Made by a program: the position numbers and the translations under genes
Notes under the pieces: model-generated
Databases searched by the model: none
What the model was told of the DNA's origin: nothing
The model's input: the letters and a program-made list of their open reading frames with translations, nothing else
Assembly: GCA_012271015.1 (NCBI GenBank)
Contig: JAAXHD010000123.1
Span: 32,138-96,137 of the forward strand
Direction: 5' to 3'
DNA length: 64,000 bases
Source of the DNA: Candidatus Poribacteria bacterium
GTDB lineage: Bacteria > Poribacteria > WGA-4E > WGA-3G
Part shown: piece by piece, positions 3,267-53,800 of the stretch
Position numbering within the stretch: position 1 is the stretch's first letter
Layout of the letters: each line of letters opens with the position of its first letter

Positions 3267-4148
3267 ATGAAAATACTTATAACCGGCGCGAGCGGTAGGC
3301 TCGGTGAGTTTGTAATCCGAGAATTGGTGTCAGATCACGCATTAGTGCTGATGTCACGCAGAACACCACCCGCTGAATTCTCGCACCTCCCATTCATCCA
3401 AGGCGATCTGAATACCTTTGAGGACTGCCAGCGTGCTGTTGAAGGTGTGGACGCTATCCAACATCTCGGTGCACAACCCGGTCCCGTCGATCATCCAGAT
3501 TTACGTGCCCGCGCCGCTGAGCAGGGGATCCCCTTCGACGCAACCTTCAAAACGAACATGCTTGGCACTTACTACCTCATGCAAGCCGCAATTGAAGCAG
3601 ATGTCCACACGGTTGTGATGTCCGGAAGCAATTGCGCCTTAGGACACGGCTTTCGGATTAGCAAAACCCACATTCCAGTAGACTACCTCCCTATAGATGA
3701 AGAACACCCGTGCTATCCTGAAGACTCCTATAGTTTCTCTAAACGGTGTGGCGAGGATTTGTTGGCAAGTTACACCCGCGCTTATGGCATCCGAACCTAC
3801 GTTACACGTCCTGCGGGTATCAGCCCAGAAGAACGGAGAAAACAGATGGCGGAAAATGCTAAACCGACAACGGCTTGGACACCGTGGCTCTGGTGTTGGG
3901 TTGGGAGCGAAGATGTCGCAAGTGCACACCGCCTGATTATGGAAAAAGCGGATACGTTACCCGCGCACGATGTCTACTTTTTGAACGCCGACGACACTTC
4001 AGCCTTGGAACCTTCTCAAGAGTTAGTCGAGCGTTTTAAACCCGAATTTCTTCTGAAGGTGAGAACGCTTGAAGGACATCAATCGTTTATTACTTGCGAT
4101 AAACTGAAAAACGCCGTCGGATGGCAACACAAAACATCGTGGCGATAA
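3267..4148 (+). CDS. NAD-dependent epimerase/dehydratase (extended SDR family)
   Basis: N-terminal Rossmann motif ITGASGRLG and catalytic YxxxK (YSFSK). It is preceded by the conserved leader CCGCAAGGAATAATTAAAAAATG. Confidence 0.7.
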   Translation: MKILITGASGRLGEFVIRELVSDHALVLMSRRTPPAEFSHLPFIQGDLNTFEDCQRAVEGVDAIQHLGAQPGPVDHPDLRARAAEQGIPFDATFKTNMLGTYYLMQAAIEADVHTVVMSGSNCALGHGFRISKTHIPVDYLPIDEEHPCYPEDSYSFSKRCGEDLLASYTRAYGIRTYVTRPAGISPEERRKQMAENAKPTTAWTPWLWCWVGSEDVASAHRLIMEKADTLPAHDVYFLNADDTSALEPSQELVERFKPEFLLKVRTLEGHQSFITCDKLKNAVGWQHKTSWR

Positions 4149-4592
4149 TTTCTAATTTTGCTTGCGCGCAGTCAAGGCTATTCGGTAAGAATCTCTTCTT
4201 GTTGGTGCCGCACGCGCCGTTGTTGCGTGCTACGATCTTTGGCTTTTAGAGGAAATATCTTTCTAATTTTGCTTGCGCGCAGTCAAGGCTATTCGGCAAG
4301 AATCTCTTCTTGTTGGTGCCGCACGCGCCGTTGTTGTGTGCTACGATCTTTGGCTTTTAGAGGAAATATCTTTCTAATTTTGCTTGCGCGCAGTCAAGGC
4401 TATTCGGTAAGAATCTCTTCTTGTTGGTGCCGCACGCGCCGTTGTTGCGTGCTACGATCTTTGGCTTTTAGAGGAAATATCTTTCTAATTTTGCTTGCGC
4501 GCAGTCAAGGCTATTCGGCAAGAATCTCTTCTTGTTGGTGCCGCACGCGCCGTTGTTGCGTGCTACGATCTTTGGCTTTTGGAGGAAATATT
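4149..4592. repeat. Four tandem copies of a 111-bp unit in the 5' leader of the downstream oxidoreductase gene
   Basis: Units start at 4149, 4261, 4372 and 4483 (tttctaattttgcttgcgcgcagtcaaggctattcggtaagaatctcttcttgttggtgccgcacgcgccgttgttgcgtgctacgatctttggcttttagaggaaatatc). Each contains the hairpin GCACGC-N9-GCGTGC and ends in an SD-like GAGGAAATAT. Only the last copy is followed by ATG (4593). Confidence 0.9.
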
Positions 4593-14481: not shown

Positions 14482-14715
14482 GATAATTCCTCCTTCTTGT
14501 AGGAGAATCCCGGCTCCTTCTAACCGCTGACAACCTCTTTGTAGGAGCGACTTTCAGTCGCGACCTTCATTTGTCGCTAAATCGCCCCACAAAAACTAAA
14601 CATCCGTCTTGACTTTTCACTCGATACATGGTAAACTTAAAGTAAGTTGTATTGATGGGAAAACTCTATCCTCAAGCCACTGCTACCCTAAATGAAATGA
14701 AGGTTACCATCCCCT

Positions 14716-16662
14716 ATGTCAAAAGAAAATTTCAATGAAAAACTGACCGCACTCCTCAAAACCCACCCTGACTTCCTTGACGATGCAGGCGAACTCATCC
14801 CCGCCGCCGTCAGAGACCACGCATGGCAACTCAACCACGATCTCATCAAATTATTGCTCACCGACGATCAGATAAAGACAGCCTTCTTTGACGAAATTGA
14901 CGGACATTGGGTTTTCAATCACAACACCTTCATCAACTACATCACCGACAAAAATTTTCTCGCCAACTCTTACACGCAATTCCGCAACAAAATCGGCTTG
15001 AACATCGGTGGTAAATTTTTACGCGAACGCGGTGAGGTCTCACTCGTTTGGCCCTACAAGGACTGCGTCTTGGAGGGCGGACAGACGAAGGAAGAGGAGA
15101 AACGCAAAGAGATATTCTTCAATGAAACGCTTGCACAGGACGAAATCAACCGGATGTTCGATCCGAAGGTTCTCACCAATTGGAAACGCCACACTGCCGA
15201 AGACGAACAAGACGTAACGGACATCCAACGAGACGAAAATGGAATCATTCTCGAAAACCTCATCATCAAAGGCAACAATCTCATTGCACTCCACACGCTC
15301 AAACAACAGTTTCGCGGGCAGGTCAAACTCATTTACATCGATCCGCCGTATAATACCGGCACTGACAGTTTCGGCTATAACGACAGTTTTAACCATTCCA
15401 GCTGGCTGACGTTCATGAGAAATCGGTTGGAAGTCGCGCGGGAATTTCTGAAGGATGATGGAGTTATCCTGATTCACATCGACGATCAGGAAATGCACTA
15501 TCTAAAACTCGTGGCTGACGATATATTCGGGAGAGACAATTTTATCGCCACTGTCCCAAGAAAAACTAGAAGTGGAAGAAGCAACGTACCTTACAACCTG
15601 TCTCAGGATTTTGACTGGATATTGATGTACTCAAACAAAGCGGTCAAAAAAAATAATATCTTCCAGCGGACAATTTCAAGAAAATATCATACAACCCCTG
15701 ATTTTCCTGACGATGAATGGAGATTAAGCGATATTACAGTTCAGGCTACAATTCATGAAAGACCGAATTGCAACTTCACATTAGTAAATCCGAAAAATGG
15801 GCAAGAATATCCGGTGAATCCTGATCGCTGCTGGGGCTTTCCGGGAAATTCATTTCATGACTACTACAAACGAGGGAAAATTGTTTTTCCTGGGGATTAT
15901 GATTTTCTCAACATAAGACAACCGGCATTGCGCGTTTTCAAATCTGAGGAGATTGAAAGAAAAGGGATAGATTACGATAAGGCTTTCGTCTCATCAGACT
16001 TTCTCAATCAGGCCATGGACGAATTACTGAAAAGTATGGTCAACAGGAAAGGCACGGACGAAATTGTAGAGATTTTTGGAAGAAAAGCATTCGCATATCC
16101 AAAAAATGAACTATTGATGCAACGCATTATTGAATATACAACAAAAGAAGGGGATATTGCTTTGGATTTTCATTTAGGCTCAGGCACAACTGCTGCTGTT
16201 GCTCACAAGATGGGCAGACAATACATCGGCATCGAGCAAATGGATTATGCTGAAACTCTTCCAGTTGAACGCGTAAACAAAGTAATCGCTGGTGAACAAG
16301 GCGGTATCTCTAAATCCGTCAAGTGGCAAGGCGGGGGTGATTTCATCTATTGCGAACTGATGCCATACAATCAAGCGTATATGGATAAAATCCAATCCAC
16401 CCAATCCTCCGAAGCACTGGTAGCCCTCTGGCGAGACATCGCCGAAGACGCATTCCTGAACTGGTACGTCAACCCTGAAGTCCCGGAAGAAGCCATAAAC
16501 GATTTCATCGCCATCGGCGACGTAGAGAAACAGAAACACCTACTCGCTGAATTGCTGGATAAGAATCAACTCTACGTCAACCTCTCCGAAATGGAGGATG
16601 CGGATTTTGAGGTGAGTGCAGAAGATAAGATGTTGAATAAGGCGTTTTATGGAGATTCTTGA
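14716..16662 (+). CDS. mod: Type III restriction-modification system methyltransferase (Mod), beta-class N6-adenine/N4-cytosine MTase
   Basis: Motif IV IYIDPPYNTG lies upstream of motif I FHLGSGTTAAVA (order IV-TRD-I). It is followed by a Res-type helicase-nuclease. Confidence 0.8.
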   Translation: MSKENFNEKLTALLKTHPDFLDDAGELIPAAVRDHAWQLNHDLIKLLLTDDQIKTAFFDEIDGHWVFNHNTFINYITDKNFLANSYTQFRNKIGLNIGGKFLRERGEVSLVWPYKDCVLEGGQTKEEEKRKEIFFNETLAQDEINRMFDPKVLTNWKRHTAEDEQDVTDIQRDENGIILENLIIKGNNLIALHTLKQQFRGQVKLIYIDPPYNTGTDSFGYNDSFNHSSWLTFMRNRLEVAREFLKDDGVILIHIDDQEMHYLKLVADDIFGRDNFIATVPRKTRSGRSNVPYNLSQDFDWILMYSNKAVKKNNIFQRTISRKYHTTPDFPDDEWRLSDITVQATIHERPNCNFTLVNPKNGQEYPVNPDRCWGFPGNSFHDYYKRGKIVFPGDYDFLNIRQPALRVFKSEEIERKGIDYDKAFVSSDFLNQAMDELLKSMVNRKGTDEIVEIFGRKAFAYPKNELLMQRIIEYTTKEGDIALDFHLGSGTTAAVAHKMGRQYIGIEQMDYAETLPVERVNKVIAGEQGGISKSVKWQGGGDFIYCELMPYNQAYMDKIQSTQSSEALVALWRDIAEDAFLNWYVNPEVPEEAINDFIAIGDVEKQKHLLAELLDKNQLYVNLSEMEDADFEVSAEDKMLNKAFYGDS

Positions 16663-17078
16663 TGGAAGCGGTCACGCATATTGACACCCTTGATGAAGAA
16701 AAAACGCAGCAGTGGCGGCGTGCAATTTTCTATCTGTATCTGCTGATTTTGCATCGCCGACCGACTGAGGAACACGACGAATTGAAAACGCTGGTTCACC
16801 AGCATATCCAAGAAAGTTCCCGTAGAGAGGAGGGAGAAACAATGGCACAGACAATGGCTGAGTATCTCATGGAACAAGGTGAAAGACGCGGTGAAAGACG
16901 CGGTGAAACGCACGCAAAACGTGAAGCGGTCCTCAAACTGCTGCGATTTCGATTCAATACCGTTCCTGAATCCATTACCAGTAGGATTACCTCAATACGG
17001 AGTCCATCGCGTCTCGATGCCCTCTTTGAGGCAGTCTTGACTGCCCAAACACTCGATGACATTGATTGGGGAAACTAA
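16659..17078 (+). CDS. Small DUF4351-like protein inserted between mod and res
   Basis: 139 aa. The C-terminal half (..AEYLMEQGERRGERRGE..LKLLRFRFNTVPESITSRITSIRSPSRLDALFEAVLTAQTLDDI) matches the G-rich triplet plus LL.RFG..P..i...I pattern of DUF4351 (C-terminal domain of Rpn/YhgA-like proteins). ATGA overlap with the mod stop; 23-nt overlap with the res start. Confidence 0.45.
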   Translation: MMEAVTHIDTLDEEKTQQWRRAIFYLYLLILHRRPTEEHDELKTLVHQHIQESSRREEGETMAQTMAEYLMEQGERRGERRGETHAKREAVLKLLRFRFNTVPESITSRITSIRSPSRLDALFEAVLTAQTLDDIDWGN

Positions 17079-19701
17079 GGTTACGATGCTTGAGCAATTT
17101 CTTCATGAACAACTCGAAATCGCGTTCAACTTTGGGATCCCCAAACCGGAAATGCCGGATAGCATTACGCAAAATCTGAATCCCACGTTTGAACTCCGTC
17201 CCTACCAAGAAGACGCGTTTGCGAGTTTTATTCACTACTTCAGTAACGACCTGCCGGGCAAAGAAAACCCCTTACACCTGCTGTTCAACATGGCGACCGG
17301 TAGTGGCAAGACGCTCATCATGGCAGGTTTGATTCTCTACCTTTATGAGAAAGGCTACCGCAACTTCCTTTTTTTCGTTAATTCCACCAATATCATAGAA
17401 AAGACGAAAGACAACTTTCTCAATGCGCGCTCCGCAAAATACCTATTCAGTGAAGATATCCATATCGACAGGGAGCACGTTGCGGTCACAGAAGTGGAAA
17501 ATTTCGAGGGAATCAACGAGAAATCTATCAATATTTGCTTCACAACGATCCAGAAACTCCACTCAGATCTAACAGCGGAAAAGGAGAACGCCCTAACCTT
17601 TGAAGATTTCAAGGAAAAGGAAATTGTTCTCTTGGCAGATGAAGCGCACCACATGAACGTGCAGACCAGAACTCAGCAGTTGGAACTGGAATTGGAAGAG
17701 CAGAAGCCGAGTTGGGAGAATACGGTTGAGAACATCTTTCGCGCGAACGCAAATAACCTATTGTTGGAATTCACGGCTACGCACGATTACGAAACCCCAA
17801 ACATTGTGGATAAGTACCGAAACAAGATTATCTATCGTTACGATCTCGTAAACTTTCGGAACGATCGGTTCTCAAAAGATGTTGTCCTTGTCCATTCCGA
17901 CTTGGAGCCAGAATCCCGCATCTTGCAGGCACTCATTCTGAATCAGTACAAAGAGGAGGTCGCGGCGGATAGTGGCATCAATCTAAAACCCGTCATTTTG
18001 TTCAAGGCACAACGAACAATCGCGCAATCGCAAGAGAACAAGGTAAACTTTCATAAACTCATTGATGAACTCACTGCCGACCAGATTGACAGTTTTCGAG
18101 GATCAGATCTTGAGATCGTTCAACGGGCATTCAGTTTCTTGGATAAAAAGATGACTACTGAAGAGTTGGTCCAACGTCTAAAATCGGCATTCCGTGAGGA
18201 GCACTGCCTCTCGGTTAACAATGACAATGAAAAGGAGACGTATCAACTCCGCCTTAACAACCTTGAAGACAGAAGCAATCCGATCCGTGCCATCTTCGCC
18301 GTGCAGAAACTCAACGAGGGGTGGGATGTGTTGAACCTCTTCGATATCGTCCGCTGTTATGAAGCCCGCGACTCAGGAAAGAGCAAAATCGGAAAAACAA
18401 CGATATCCGAGGCACAACTCATCGGGCGCGGCGCACGCTATTTCCCCTTCGTTTTGCCTGACCATACAGACCGGTTCCGCCGTAAGTTTGACGAAGACCT
18501 CGACCACGAATTGCGCGTACTGGAAGAACTTCACTACCATAGTATCCACGATTCGCGCTACATCTCTGAAATCCGCACTGCACTGATTGACGAAGGTATG
18601 ATGGACGAACGCCTTGAGACTCGCGAGCTCAAGTTAAAATCCGAGTTCAAGGACACCGATCTCTACAAACACGGCGTTGTTTGGCTCAACAAACAGGTGC
18701 CGAAAGATTATCAACACGTCCAATCTTTTGGAGATTTGGCGCAACTCAGTGTCCGGCAGAAAAACTACGAACATACCATCCATACCGGAACCGGCGGCGT
18801 GACGGCTGTCATGGAGAACAGTGAGACACCGGTGCAACAGGGCCATCCAAGCAGTCGGGATATTCAGGTAGTTGACATCGAACAGAATATCGTCAAATCC
18901 GCTATTGCTCGCAATCCGCTTTTCTCGTTTGCATCACTTAAACAGTATTTTCCGCACTTGGCATCCGTCCGAGAATTCATTACCTCCAAAAACTATCTGG
19001 GTGGCTTAGCAATCACTTTCAAAGGACACCTCACTGACTTGGAAGAGAATCGCTCTGCAAAACTGGCGGCGTGTGAGGGGCTGCTCAGTCAAATCGAATC
19101 CGAAATTCGCAAAGAGATTACTGAATACCAAGGCACGAAACACTTTTATGAGCAGCAAATTCTCGTTGTTTTCACTGACAAAACCCTGAAATTCAGTGTG
19201 GACACACCGCGTGCCGATGACAGCGACACGGCGTATCTGGTCAAAGTCAGCGACTGGTTCGCTTATGATACCTTCTACGGTACGAGTGAAGAAAAGGCGT
19301 TCGTACAGATGCTGGACAGATGGATTCAGGAATCGGAGAAAACCTACGAGGATATCTATCTGCTTCGCAATGAGGGGCATTTCTCACTCTATAACTTCTT
19401 CGATGGCAGCCCTTTTCAACCTGACTTCGTGTTGTTCTTGCGTGAGAAAAATGGAGAATCCCTAAGTTACCAACTCTTCATTGAACCCAAAGGTGAGCAT
19501 CTGGCGGAAATTGACCGATGGAAAGAGAAGTTCCTACAGGAGATCCGTGCGGAATTCCGCAGTAAAATCTTGACGGAGAACAGTAAATATCGCGTCATCG
19601 GTGTCCCCTCCTTCTATCACGAGAGATACGAGAATCAATTCAAGGACGACCTTAATGCGGCATTAACTGATACATCTCAAACACAAGAACACAATGACTG
19701 A
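17056..19701 (+). CDS. res: Type III restriction enzyme Res subunit (SF2 helicase plus C-terminal PD-(D/E)xK nuclease)
   Basis: Walker A MATGSGKT, DEAH box LLADEAHH, C-terminal FQPDFVLF...FIEPKG endonuclease motif. An alternative start is ATG 17086 (AAGG SD). Confidence 0.8.
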   Translation: MTLIGETKVTMLEQFLHEQLEIAFNFGIPKPEMPDSITQNLNPTFELRPYQEDAFASFIHYFSNDLPGKENPLHLLFNMATGSGKTLIMAGLILYLYEKGYRNFLFFVNSTNIIEKTKDNFLNARSAKYLFSEDIHIDREHVAVTEVENFEGINEKSINICFTTIQKLHSDLTAEKENALTFEDFKEKEIVLLADEAHHMNVQTRTQQLELELEEQKPSWENTVENIFRANANNLLLEFTATHDYETPNIVDKYRNKIIYRYDLVNFRNDRFSKDVVLVHSDLEPESRILQALILNQYKEEVAADSGINLKPVILFKAQRTIAQSQENKVNFHKLIDELTADQIDSFRGSDLEIVQRAFSFLDKKMTTEELVQRLKSAFREEHCLSVNNDNEKETYQLRLNNLEDRSNPIRAIFAVQKLNEGWDVLNLFDIVRCYEARDSGKSKIGKTTISEAQLIGRGARYFPFVLPDHTDRFRRKFDEDLDHELRVLEELHYHSIHDSRYISEIRTALIDEGMMDERLETRELKLKSEFKDTDLYKHGVVWLNKQVPKDYQHVQSFGDLAQLSVRQKNYEHTIHTGTGGVTAVMENSETPVQQGHPSSRDIQVVDIEQNIVKSAIARNPLFSFASLKQYFPHLASVREFITSKNYLGGLAITFKGHLTDLEENRSAKLAACEGLLSQIESEIRKEITEYQGTKHFYEQQILVVFTDKTLKFSVDTPRADDSDTAYLVKVSDWFAYDTFYGTSEEKAFVQMLDRWIQESEKTYEDIYLLRNEGHFSLYNFFDGSPFQPDFVLFLREKNGESLSYQLFIEPKGEHLAEIDRWKEKFLQEIRAEFRSKILTENSKYRVIGVPSFYHERYENQFKDDLNAALTDTSQTQEHND

Positions 19702-20002
19702 ACTCTTATGTAGAGTCTCTCATAAATCCTGGCTCAGCAGGGAAGCCGCCGAAGCCCATACGCGTGTCGCCCCGCTGGGCTTAGAGATCTGTGGTCAACA
19801 CGCAGCTACACATCTGTCGCCCCGCTGGGGCTTAGGGAGGGGTTAGAAACACCGTATAGAAGAGAAAGCGGAACGCCTAATGCCAAAAACTTTACATACT
19901 CAGTAAAAACTTTTTGCTTGACAGAATCTGCAATAAGTGCTAACATAATTAAATGTTTTTTTTGTCGGAGATACACCAAAAACGGAGAGTTTCCTAAGTA
20001 CA

Positions 20003-50830: not shown

Positions 50831-53800
50831 CTATAATGGAGTGGAGTCGATATCCGAATCTTGGAAGATTGGTTTGAGATAGGCGGGATCGTCAGTGCGG
50901 AAAAGGATGTGCCATTTTTCTGCGAAAGTGTTTCTATCCTCGTCCGGATACCTTCCTATGAGATCGGACAGACTGGTTCTCGAAATTACAAAGGCATCCA
51001 TTTGGACATGTTCATAACGGAGTCGTTCATAAGAGATGTCCCGGAGTCGCTGGAAAAGGGTAAGTTTATCATTATCCTCGTTGATGTCCTCGTGGACCAT
51101 GCCGTGCGGTTCAATAAAGACGATGCGCTGTTTAACGCCGTCAAGGATCCAGAGGATAAAATCAGGGTAGAATCCTTCGTTCTCATAGAAGCCAACTCCT
51201 TTGCCACGACTCTGGTTACGTAAGAGGAAAACCTCTTTCTGACAAGGACGTTTCTGGTGGTGTTGACGGAGGTATTGATTTAAATCTTCCACGAAATCTC
51301 TTTCACTGTCTTCCAAGGCAGGGGGAGTGGTCCGCCATAAGTTGTTTCCAATGCCCATGCTTAGGAGGGATCGATAAAGATGTTCTTCGTTGGTTAGGAG
51401 GGGTTGATAGAGATGACGTTCGTTATAGACATTCGGTAGAACGGTTAGGCTGGGTCCATATATCTCTTCACTTTCCATGAGATTTTCAATCCGTGGTTGA
51501 ATTTCCTGCGCTTCGGTTCTTGGCACATGAACAATCCAGTCGGGAAAGTTGTTCTCATCTTCGGTTTCCTCACCTAAGCGGCGTATCCGAATCCTATCAT
51601 CGTTCCATCGTTTTTGAATAATACGGTAGTATTTAGCAATATATTTTCGGAGAAGCGTAAGGACTAATTCTTCTAAACGTTCAAGTTCTACTGTTGATGT
51701 CGGGACGACTTCGGATTCATCCATGACGGTAAGTTTATAGACGGGTTTGTTCGGGTTGAGGATCTCCTGAAGAGTAGTGGTATCAAAGATGAGGTTGTGG
51801 TATCCCTTTTCGTGTTTATATGCTAGGAGTTGCAGGTAAATTTTTTCCCAGTCTACAAGCGCTAAGCTTGGTTCTGGAATGTAGGTGGGAAGCGTTCCTT
51901 CGGCGTGTTCAGTATGGATACCGCGCTGTGAACTGCTTCCAACGATGCCAATACTTTGAGTGGTGTGAGTAATAATTGTGCCTGTGAGTACTTTAAGAGG
52001 TTCGCACTGCCCTTTCGCCCCTTCATGGTAGGGAGTAACTTTCGGGATGCAAAGCCGTTTCTCGTGGTAAACATCGTTTCGTCTGATTTCAATTGTCAGT
52101 TGGATAGGTTCATCAAGTTGTATGCCTTCGCGCAGGAGGTAATCTCGGAATTGTGCCATGAAGTTGGCACGGACAGCAAAAATGTTCAACGTTTCCAAAA
52201 GAGGGAGGTTGCGCGGATGCTCGCCATCCAGGGCAGCACTGCGTCTGAGACTCATGTTCTTGCCACGTAAGCGGACACCCCTACCGAACAATTGAATAAT
52301 CTGGGAGCCTTCCTGCCTGCCGATGTTGAGCAAACCCATGGCGGTGACGCGCCAACTGTCCCATCCTTCGATGAATTTTTTTGCACCAATGAGAATATGA
52401 ATTGAACTATCGGATTTGTTGATGTCATTGAAAAGGCTTTCCGTGAGTACATCTTCAGAATCTGTTTCAATGCCTGCATCATCGTTTTCAACGAGTTTTT
52501 TGAAGGCAGCGGTATCTCCAATGTAGATAAGACCAAAGTTTTCCCTGCCGTGAGTGGTTTTCAATGCGATCTCACCCTGAGCGTTTCGAACATCTTGTAG
52601 GTGTAACGCGCCGCTTGTGTTGGTGTGGAACACCTCGTCAAGAATGCCAGTATAGATTTGGGCTGATGTCTCGTCGAAAGTTTTGAGATAATTGAGCCGA
52701 GTGTGGAAGATATCCGTGTCGTTGTCATCAGATAAGCCTGAATTGCCATTAATAATTTTCTCAATAGCGTTAGTCGCCCAATTTTCTTCGTTTTTTACGA
52801 ACCAATGCAGGAAACGGATGACATTGAGGACATCAGAGCGGGCGCGGCGGTTTTCGGTATAGACAGCGTTGACTTTACTCCCCACAAATGCCCATAGCGG
52901 AGAGTCCAATCCATAGGCACGAACAGCCTTGGTGTTTTGTTTGAAATAGCGGCGTTGCTCGTAGAAGGTGAGTAGATTGGCTAAAAGCAGCATCTCAGTT
53001 TGGGACTCTTCATCTTGGCGAACGTTGAGGATGCGGAAGTTTTTTCCGTAACCATCTTCGTAGAAATACCGGTAGGAGTAATCAAAGACGATAGCTTTTC
53101 CGTATTCCTCGACGAGATCTGCATTTTTCGCGGCGGTGAGTGCCTGCCCGAAGGTGGCACTGTATTCAAAAGTAAAGCCGGTTTCGCCGAGTCTATCGCG
53201 GATTTTGCGCCAGACTTCGCCGCCACTCCCCTTATGTCCTTCATCAACAAGAATGAGATTGTTCCCCTCAAAAGCCTCAACCGGTACACTTTCGCCTACA
53301 CCTGTCTTTTCTTCCACCACCTTTGTGATTTCAATGACTTGCACAGCATCGTGATCACGAGCGTTCCGATTGCCATCAACGTTGAAACGTTGGCATCGGA
53401 TATCGGAGTTTGTGAGTTCACGGATATGTTGTTCACTTAAGCCCTCGTTGGATGTGATAAGAACAACATGGTCCAATTCCTCTTTGCTGTAGTGGAGATA
53501 CTGATGGTAGTTGATGTGCATGATGAGGGTTTTACCGGCACCCGTTGCCATCCAGAAGGCGAGTTTCTCAATATCTTCATTTGTGAATAGGGTGTCCATA
53601 GCATCGCCGGGGGCTCTCGCATCGTTCTGCGTTTGGACAAAATCGTTGAGTTGGCGTAAAAATTCACCGCGTCTATTGAGTTTCCAATCTAAAAAGATTT
53701 CGGTATAGAGAAGTGCTAAGTATTGAAAATAGCGGAGGACAATTGGCTGTGTGCGTCTGCTGTTTATGGCGGACAAGTGCTGTTTGATATTCGTATCATA

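Follow-up and report, generated by a model that had tools for sequence, protein, structure and literature searches.

Why should a small open reading frame (ORF) lie between the modification and the restriction gene of a restriction-modification (R-M) operon of Type III? The question is raised by a stretch of 64,000 nt from Candidatus Poribacteria bacterium (assembly GCA_012271015.1, contig JAAXHD010000123.1), called the window in what follows, where the block 14716-19701 holds three ORFs on the same strand: mod, a small ORF and res. The original prediction had suggested that the small ORF could be a translationally coupled accessory protein or the remnant of a nuclease fusion. We think, with a probability of about 0.88, that it is what remains of an rpn gene, a gene-within-gene toxin-antitoxin gene embedded in the Type III R-M operon, after its 5' part had been deleted. 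In E. coli the rpn genes are gene-within-gene toxin-antitoxin and antiphage systems, in which RpnS, a small C-terminal domain made from an internal start, blocks the toxic full-length nuclease RpnL; RpnS is also encoded separately, by genes annotated as DUF4351, e.g. ypaA (Zhong et al. 2023, PMC10400941).

The small ORF (16662..17078, + strand) corresponds to the part of a gene of about 354-361 codons that extends from approximately codon 217 to the end. It stops with TAA at 17078 and codes for 138 amino acids if counted from ATG 16662, or for 139 if counted from TTG 16659. With respect to the mod stop codon (TGA, 16660-16662) the TTG start would create a TTGA overlap, and the ATG start shares a single base with it (TGATG); the ATGA overlap described earlier does not exist in either case. 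We consider ATG 16662, which is preceded at a distance of 7 nt by a weak GGAG, a more plausible start than the listed TTG 16659. In the profile search that had been proposed as a check, residues 81-135 matched DUF4351 (PF14261, profile positions 2-55 of 59) with 26.4 bits, the gathering score being 25 (E = 7.1e-6), in agreement with the predicted position of this domain in the C-terminal half. The match is marginal in the window ORF, and it is repeated in the closest related locus, L014 (27.0 bits; related loci are referred to by numbers with the prefix L), and in many homologues. The PF04754 nuclease domain gave no match in the small ORF.

A protein search identified 102 homologues, the best non-identical one with E = 2.6e-67 and several with PF04754, thus the small ORF is derived from coding sequence and did not arise by chance. 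It aligns, in the same frame, with the C-terminal ~138 residues of longer proteins. The Rpn homology ends exactly at 16659, and the frame upstream of this point is unrelated. The proteins that were aligned as full-length Rpn and share the window ORF as their C-terminus come from L014, L017, L020, L029, L065, L096 and L099; identity of the shared region is 94% with the L029 Rpn and 91.5% with that of L014. The existence of full-length orthologues with both PF04754 and PF14261 substantiates the suggested link to the Rpn/YhgA-type PD-(D/E)xK nucleases. The small ORF derives from an RpnL gene but is not an RpnL; it is a decayed member of the known RpnS/DUF4351 family. Of the earlier idea of a nuclease-fusion remnant, the nuclease part holds and the fusion with Res does not, since the sequence comes from a separate rpn gene, of which it is the 3' third.

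That rpn genes belong to this neighborhood is evident from the related loci. A scan of species-representative genomes with Res yielded 80 loci. The sponge symbionts of Candidatus Poribacteria account for 56 of these. In L014, the locus of the closest Candidatus Poribacteria genome (Res 93% identical), the gene order is mod, a gene that we call X (458 aa), full-length rpn (361 aa) and res. Full-length rpn genes of 354-361 codons adjoin res on its upstream side in L014, L017, L020 and L029; the rpn of L065 adjoins res, too, but is 5'-truncated (longest ORF 313 codons). In these five loci the rpn stop codon lies ~8 nt before the ATG of res, and the Rpn C-termini are 77-94% identical to the window ORF. 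The order mod-X-rpn-res, with rpn directly upstream of res, was also found in L096 and L098-L103, and there are at least 11 poribacterial loci besides L014 in which rpn occupies this position. The L014 Rpn contains PF04754 (E = 5.3e-28) in addition to DUF4351. In the test with TIGR01784, the NCBIfam model of the Rpn family, the L099 protein passes the cutoff (56.2 vs. 52.1 bits), and the L014 and L029 proteins stay just under it. The relationship to E. coli RpnA is remote, the poribacterial proteins scoring 29-31 bits with the RpnA model, whose cutoff is 583. None of the PADLOC models matches Rpn.

Gene X (L014:3445-4821; L099:1455-2849) codes for proteins of 455-525 aa and adjoins mod on the downstream side in 13 loci; in those that also have rpn, X usually precedes it. 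The X proteins are part of a large family, with more than 530 hits, and have a C-terminal RSAVVH (Rx4H) motif; two homologues with 45-47% identity are named "HEPN domain-containing protein" by NCBI. X has no credible Pfam match at E <= 10 and no match in PADLOC.

The rpn gene has decayed in several ways in this group of loci. Independent 5' truncations occur in L032 (113 aa remaining) and L030 (86 aa), the L097 copy is truncated by an insertion sequence (IS), those of L011 and L012 have internal deletions, and that of L010 a frameshift. L012 (1-5158), whose Res is 79% identical, is an orthologous Type III locus with a DUF1883-TIR gene between mod and res, where mod was called in two pieces and the decayed rpn is downstream, not upstream, of res. 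As a stand-alone ORF the 139-aa sequence is present only in this strain: in the syntenic and related loci it is the C-terminus of an Rpn of 354-364 aa, or is part of some other truncation, or is absent. The three-gene arrangement, for which a survey had been suggested, is therefore not a conserved one. A scan of metagenome contigs with the small ORF found only two short contigs (L094, L095). The window and L065 are 77.5% identical in the Rpn C-terminus and only 62% in Res, and this higher conservation of the Rpn C-terminus suggests exchange of cargo between paralogous loci.

Comparison with L014, which is syntenic with the window on both flanks, points to the event that produced the small ORF. 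Homology to the end of L014 mod extends up to 16667, homology to L014 rpn begins at 16658, and a stretch of 2,137 bp, comprising the gene for the 458-aa X protein and rpn up to codon ~216, is present in L014 and absent from the window. The junction coincides with an 11-nt sequence, CTTGATGGAAG (16658..16668, + strand), which spans the mod stop codon (TGA, 16660-62) and the rpn-internal methionine codon (ATG, 16662-64). The same 11-mer occurs within the rpn gene of L014 (...GCCTTGATGGAAGCAG), and at the 3' end of mod it is found unaltered in L021 (...TTCTTGATGGAAGGG) and in altered form in L014. The shared 11-mer together with the switch of homology bears the signature of a microhomology-mediated deletion. 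Because the mod stop and the rpn-internal ATG are both contained in the 11-mer, the apparent translational coupling arose incidentally when the deletion took place, and the notion of a coupled accessory protein, which is also at odds with the lack of conservation of the ORF, is not supported. The locus, including the junction, is identical in nine independently assembled contigs from several samples, thus it is not an assembly artefact. No nuclease-domain sequence (rpnN), gene X or other rpn copy was found anywhere in the 64-kb window.

The part of rpn left behind by the deletion consists of 60 codons of the linker between the nuclease domain and RpnS (16662..16841, + strand; 88% identity with the L099 Rpn over its residues 216-275) and of an RpnS-type module of 78 aa (16842..17078, + strand), a putative antitoxin/oligomerization domain with the DUF4351 match at nt 16899-17063. 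Eight nt upstream of ATG 16842 there is a conserved internal Shine-Dalgarno sequence, GAGGAGG (16827..16833, + strand): its first six bases are kept in all 11 rpn DNAs compared and all seven in 10 of them (GAGGAGA in L032), and the adjacent codons vary. The methionine encoded by ATG 16842 (Met61) is invariant in 24 homologues, and dozens of stand-alone homologues of 75-100 aa begin at the corresponding position. A ribosome-binding site and an ATG inside the long gene, as required for internal initiation of RpnS, are thus present, judged at the sequence level only.

In the E. coli proteins four-residue repeats start 8-20 residues past the RpnS methionine, and strains differ in the number of repeats, neutralization requiring equal numbers (PMC10400941). 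In the window ORF the tract GERR-GERR-GETH (16878..16913, + strand), made up of two 12-nt units GGTGAAAGACGC followed by GGTGAAACGCAC, starts 13 residues past Met 16842. Among 27 related copies the number of GExx units ranges from one to five, the differences being always whole multiples of four residues; the window copy has three. The L099 and L100 proteins, whose nuclease parts are 100% identical, differ by one GExx unit. In L098-L103 (~3754-4270) the rpn gene, with three or four units, is followed by a separate gene for an 89-aa RpnS with five units, which overlaps the end of rpn by 20 nt; in L099 this stand-alone duplicate has its own GGAGGG ahead of the equivalent ATG. E. coli RpnA-S is a three-helix bundle that dimerizes through its long first helix (PDB 7TH0; PMC10400941). 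The AlphaFold2 model of residues 61-138 (mean confidence score, pLDDT, 84.5) has three helices (5-38, 43-51 and 55-67), of which the first is long. The remnant appears to have kept the whole RpnS module with every hallmark of E. coli RpnS that can be recognized in a sequence.

The 3' end of the small ORF is of interest with regard to res. All 80 Res relatives align from the sequence MLEQF..., which corresponds to ATG 17086, in 10 relatives the mod stop is located 2-6 nt ahead of this start, and gene callers had chosen 17086 in five of the nine identical contigs. The start at ATG 17056, on which the predicted 23-nt overlap of the small ORF with res depended, was rejected by the comparison with the relatives. 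Most likely res extends from 17086 to 19701 (+ strand), codes for 871 aa and starts 7 nt past the stop codon of the small ORF, without overlap; 17056 is merely the beginning of the longest ORF. The sequence AAGG at 17077..17080 (+ strand), which overlaps the stop codon of the rpn remnant, is the likely ribosome-binding site of res. The junction between the 3' end of rpn and the 5' end of res is conserved in all loci with full-length rpn, and ~80% identity is maintained even in the decayed locus L011, where the junction persists though most of res is gone. It is likely that the final codons of the rpn remnant double as the res ribosome-binding site, which would account in part for the survival of just those 5' truncations that retain the rpn 3' end.

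On the basis of these observations the following course of events can be proposed. The ancestral order, preserved in L014, was mod, X (HEPN-like), rpn (~360 aa) and res. A deletion of ~2,137 bp between two copies of the 11-nt microhomology eliminated X together with some 216 codons at the start of rpn, the nuclease or toxin part, and fused the mod stop codon to an internal methionine codon of rpn, leaving 138 codons that comprise 60 linker codons and a complete RpnS module with its own Shine-Dalgarno sequence and ATG. The 138-aa product could be synthesized by re-initiation at TGATG, and the 78-aa RpnS, presumably with higher efficiency, from the internal start. With the toxin gone the product would be an orphan antitoxin, either neutral or capable of neutralizing a repeat-matched RpnL paralogue encoded elsewhere in the genome. 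An orphan antitoxin without a role in restriction is, in our opinion, the most likely nature of this protein.

Whether a gene between mod and res is unusual depends on the family of Type III systems considered. Both the end of mod and the start of res could be located in 60 related loci, 39 of them poribacterial. The gap between the two genes is 2-6 nt in 10 loci, all non-poribacterial, 92-221 nt in three, and between 528 nt and 5.6 kb in the remaining 47 (e.g. L032:2131-5629, L027:4953-5756 and L029:1054-4765); none of the 39 poribacterial loci has a directly adjacent mod-res junction. The premise that Type III systems normally have no third gene thus fails in this Res family, where mod and res are directly adjacent in just 10 of 60 loci. 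In the window 423 nt of rpn-derived sequence lie between the mod stop codon (16662) and the res start (17086), and the two genes do not form an immediate two-gene operon.

Clustering of the ORFs found in the gaps showed a variety of cargo: X in 13 loci, Rpn in eight, a protein of 960-1,200 aa similar to Dsr1 outside its SIR2 part in 12, accompanied in six by a partner of ~211 aa, a DUF1883-TIR protein matching PDC-S66/ThsB, and a DUF2971/PDC-S31 protein. Further families, as far as can be told by reading the sequences, look like DUF3800, HTH-ImmA with a partner, MNT/HEPN, PIN, Uma2 and IS elements. The gap between mod and res is thus, within this family of Res proteins, a variable slot for defence and toxin-antitoxin cargo. 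One poribacterial locus (L030:1451-2470) codes for a 340-aa RRXRR-domain protein (PF14239, E = 1.5e-28) upstream of the Dsr1-like cargo. The mod-res gap also contains small ORFs in Nitrospinae (L047:5244-5989), Nitrospiria (L069:5257-6008) and Clostridia (L077:2136-2561); they look like a nucleotidyltransferase/HEPN toxin-antitoxin pair, and if this reading of their sequences is right, the slot carries cargo beyond Poribacteria as well.

These results bear on the possibility that the small ORF is a genuine third component of the Type III system, translationally coupled and modulating Res or Mod. The tight packing of the ORF between mod and res is in keeping with such a role, as is the equally tight coupling of the ancestral rpn to res in at least 12 loci, where the rpn stop lies ~8 nt before the res ATG. 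However, the ORF is not conserved: in 10 loci just 2-6 nt separate mod from res, and the remaining 50 gaps vary from 92 nt to 5.6 kb, the 47 gaps of at least 528 nt being roomy enough for the unrelated cargo genes found there. Moreover, the coupling to mod was made by the deletion microhomology, and the domain is known from a toxin-antitoxin family. We regard this explanation as very improbable. Scarcely credible, too, is an insertion in place of a deletion, in which a mobile DUF4351 mini-gene was placed between mod and res. Rpn proteins were formerly annotated as putative transposases (Pfam Transposase_31), but the first codon of the ORF is an internal one in every full-length relative, well inside a conserved protein, neither repeats nor mobile-element ends are present, the syntenic sister has the full gene, and the junction shows the signature of a microhomology deletion. 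The "third gene" is what a deletion has left of a known toxin-antitoxin/defence gene, and its annotation as an accessory subunit of the Type III system is unwarranted.

It must be added that several results weigh against the small ORF being a remnant with RpnS character. A Foldseek search of PDB with the model of the RpnS module did not recover the RpnA-S structure 7TH0 and found nothing significant, and the RpnS alignment, used as a profile against the sequences in PDB, gave only a chance match (E = 0.19). No partner RpnL for the orphan was found in the 64-kb window. The window copy has five unique amino-acid changes versus six unique synonymous ones, and one of the five, a Leu to Pro replacement, affects a nearly invariant position; the corresponding nonsynonymous:synonymous numbers of the intact sisters are 3:12 (L014) and 3:7 (L029). 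This excess hints at relaxed constraint and, with so few changes, is not significant. The pairwise ratio of nonsynonymous to synonymous substitution rates (dN/dS), 0.10-0.13, is equal to that of intact genes and reflects mostly the history before the deletion.

If the small ORF is an rpn remnant, its present state can be imagined in two ways. We give about even odds to its being an inert pseudogene, a transcribed operon spacer whose peptide is unstable or functionless, and which persists only because the deletion is recent and the 3' end provides the ribosome-binding site of res. Its origin by deletion, its presence in this strain only, the replacement of Leu by Pro at a conserved position within a helix and the frequency of decayed rpn genes in the clade (L010, L011, L012, L097) fit this description; 138 codons without frameshift or stop, and an intact ATG with a strong internal Shine-Dalgarno sequence, do not. 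The other possibility, a sub-case of the deletion-remnant explanation, is that the RpnS-only remnant has been kept by selection to neutralize an RpnL from elsewhere in the genome or from mobile DNA. The intact ORF with two usable starts, the repeated origin of 5' truncations that keep RpnS (window, L030, L032, L097), the common occurrence of stand-alone DUF4351/RpnS genes in the poribacterial clade and in E. coli, and the low pairwise dN/dS would all be consistent with selection. Nevertheless, retention of the 3' end is expected without selection, because no deletion that extends into res or its ribosome-binding site would persist, and because loss of the antitoxin before the toxin would be lethal. 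The unique Leu to Pro change and the ratio of unique nonsynonymous to synonymous changes, which is above that of the sisters, also speak against selection, and E. coli RpnS needs a partner with an equal number of repeats, of which no example is known here. A selected antitoxin is therefore possible, but we are doubtful about it. Inertness and usefulness against a paralogous RpnL would seem about equally likely for the remnant.

The flanking genes form a regular Type III pair, as had been predicted. The full-length mod (14716..16662, + strand; 648 aa) codes for a protein all of whose residues (1-648) align with the relatives, and which matches PF12564 (E = 1.3e-20), PF01555 (E = 1.8e-43) and the PADLOC model MTase_III (E = 5.7e-182). 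In its translation motif IV, IDPPYNT (DPPY), is N-terminal to motif I, DFHLGSGTT (FxGxG), thus Mod has the N-terminal domain and the N6/N4 methyltransferase domain with the motif order that define Type III Mod proteins. The central third of mod (15487-16118) does not align at the DNA level with the mod of the syntenic L014, both ends of the gene being 83-84% identical; overall protein identity is 63%. It looks as if strains had exchanged the target-recognition domain, which would imply different methylation specificities.

The Res protein, whose full-length sequence is 60-93% identical to those of the 80 relatives, matches PF04851 (ResIII/DEAH helicase, E = 8.6e-32) and, with residues 17-862, PADLOC REase_III (E = 6e-138). 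Its sequence contains LLADEAHH (DEAH) and, near the C-terminus, QPDF...IEPKG (PD...EPK), i.e. the superfamily-2 helicase and C-terminal PD-(D/E)xK nuclease that characterize Type III Res. Apparent frameshifts in mod or res of contigs L003 and L002, which might have indicated phase variation, were dismissed as the breaks in the gene calls coincide with scaffolding runs of N. On the minus strand of the window, a segment at 51101-51304 shows weak similarity at the protein level (27% over 68 residues, E = 2e-4) to the nuclease region at the C-terminus of Res and may belong to another PD-(D/E)xK nuclease gene.

A consensus scan of the + strand found a single promoter-like site upstream of mod or inside the block of the three ORFs, TTGACT-17-TAAACT at 14609..14637, 5' of mod; a further match, at 19918-19946, is downstream of res. 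The same scan detected no promoter-like or terminator-like site on this strand in the mod-res interval, which is weak evidence as poribacterial promoters are uncharacterized. The absence of such internal sites fits a single transcript of mod, the small ORF and res, and the small ORF is presumably transcribed together with its neighbors.

The cargo-slot pattern of the poribacterial Type III operons is the part of this work that seems worth following. A precedent for an effector in an R-M locus is PrrC, an anticodon nuclease encoded in a Type IC locus, which is silenced by the R-M enzyme and activated by a phage inhibitor (reviewed in PMC12707154). One could go further and assume that in Poribacteria and some other phyla the mod-res junction of this Type III family is a dedicated slot of toxic effectors (RpnLS, HEPN-like X, TIR, Dsr1-like, MNT/HEPN, PIN), which are co-transcribed with the restriction enzyme and functionally tied to it in the way that PrrC is tied to EcoprrI, and that the RpnS of the window is a selected immunity factor against the RpnL of incoming or paralogous Type III cassettes. 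We consider this unlikely as a whole. If the cargo were functionally coupled to restriction, Type III systems, and with them abundant sponge symbionts, would come under the PrrC-type idea of a "guardian inside the R-M operon".

Compared with the E. coli RpnL/RpnS pairs, the poribacterial full-length orthologues have the same architecture, a PF04754 domain followed by a small, helical C-terminal DUF4351 domain, they share the internal in-frame Shine-Dalgarno sequence and ATG, and they have repeats 13 residues past the methionine, which vary in number between near-identical strains. The extra stand-alone copy of the small domain downstream of the long gene in L099 is reminiscent of the E. coli rpnE-ypaA arrangement. 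Unlike in E. coli, the poribacterial gene is located inside a Type III R-M operon and is directly coupled to res, and in the window the nuclease is deleted, leaving only the small part and 60 linker codons. As in other orphan antitoxins and toxin-antitoxin remnants, the toxin was lost and the antitoxin part kept, which is the only viable order of decay; the difference is that here toxin and antitoxin share one frame, so that a single 5' deletion gives an antitoxin-only ORF. The locus would thus be a clean natural case of a gene-within-gene toxin-antitoxin reduced in one step, by an 11-nt microhomology deletion, to its antitoxin.

The host operon agrees with canonical Type III systems (EcoP15I-type; here with a HI_1054-like Res family, PF27159/PF27365) in that mod precedes res on one strand, Mod consists of the N-terminal and N6_N4 methylase domains with a variable center, and Res of a DEAH helicase and a C-terminal PD-(D/E)xK nuclease. 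It differs from the canonical two-gene operons in the 423 nt of foreign, rpn-derived coding sequence between mod and res, a distance that reaches 5.6 kb in related Poribacteria. The ancestral poribacterial arrangement, with a toxic effector between the genes of R-M subunits, is similar to that of PrrC and RloC in Type I R-M loci. The likeness is one of gene position only: unlike with PrrC, the host operon is of Type III, the cargo is Rpn or a HEPN-like, TIR or Dsr1-like protein, and from the window the effector itself has disappeared.

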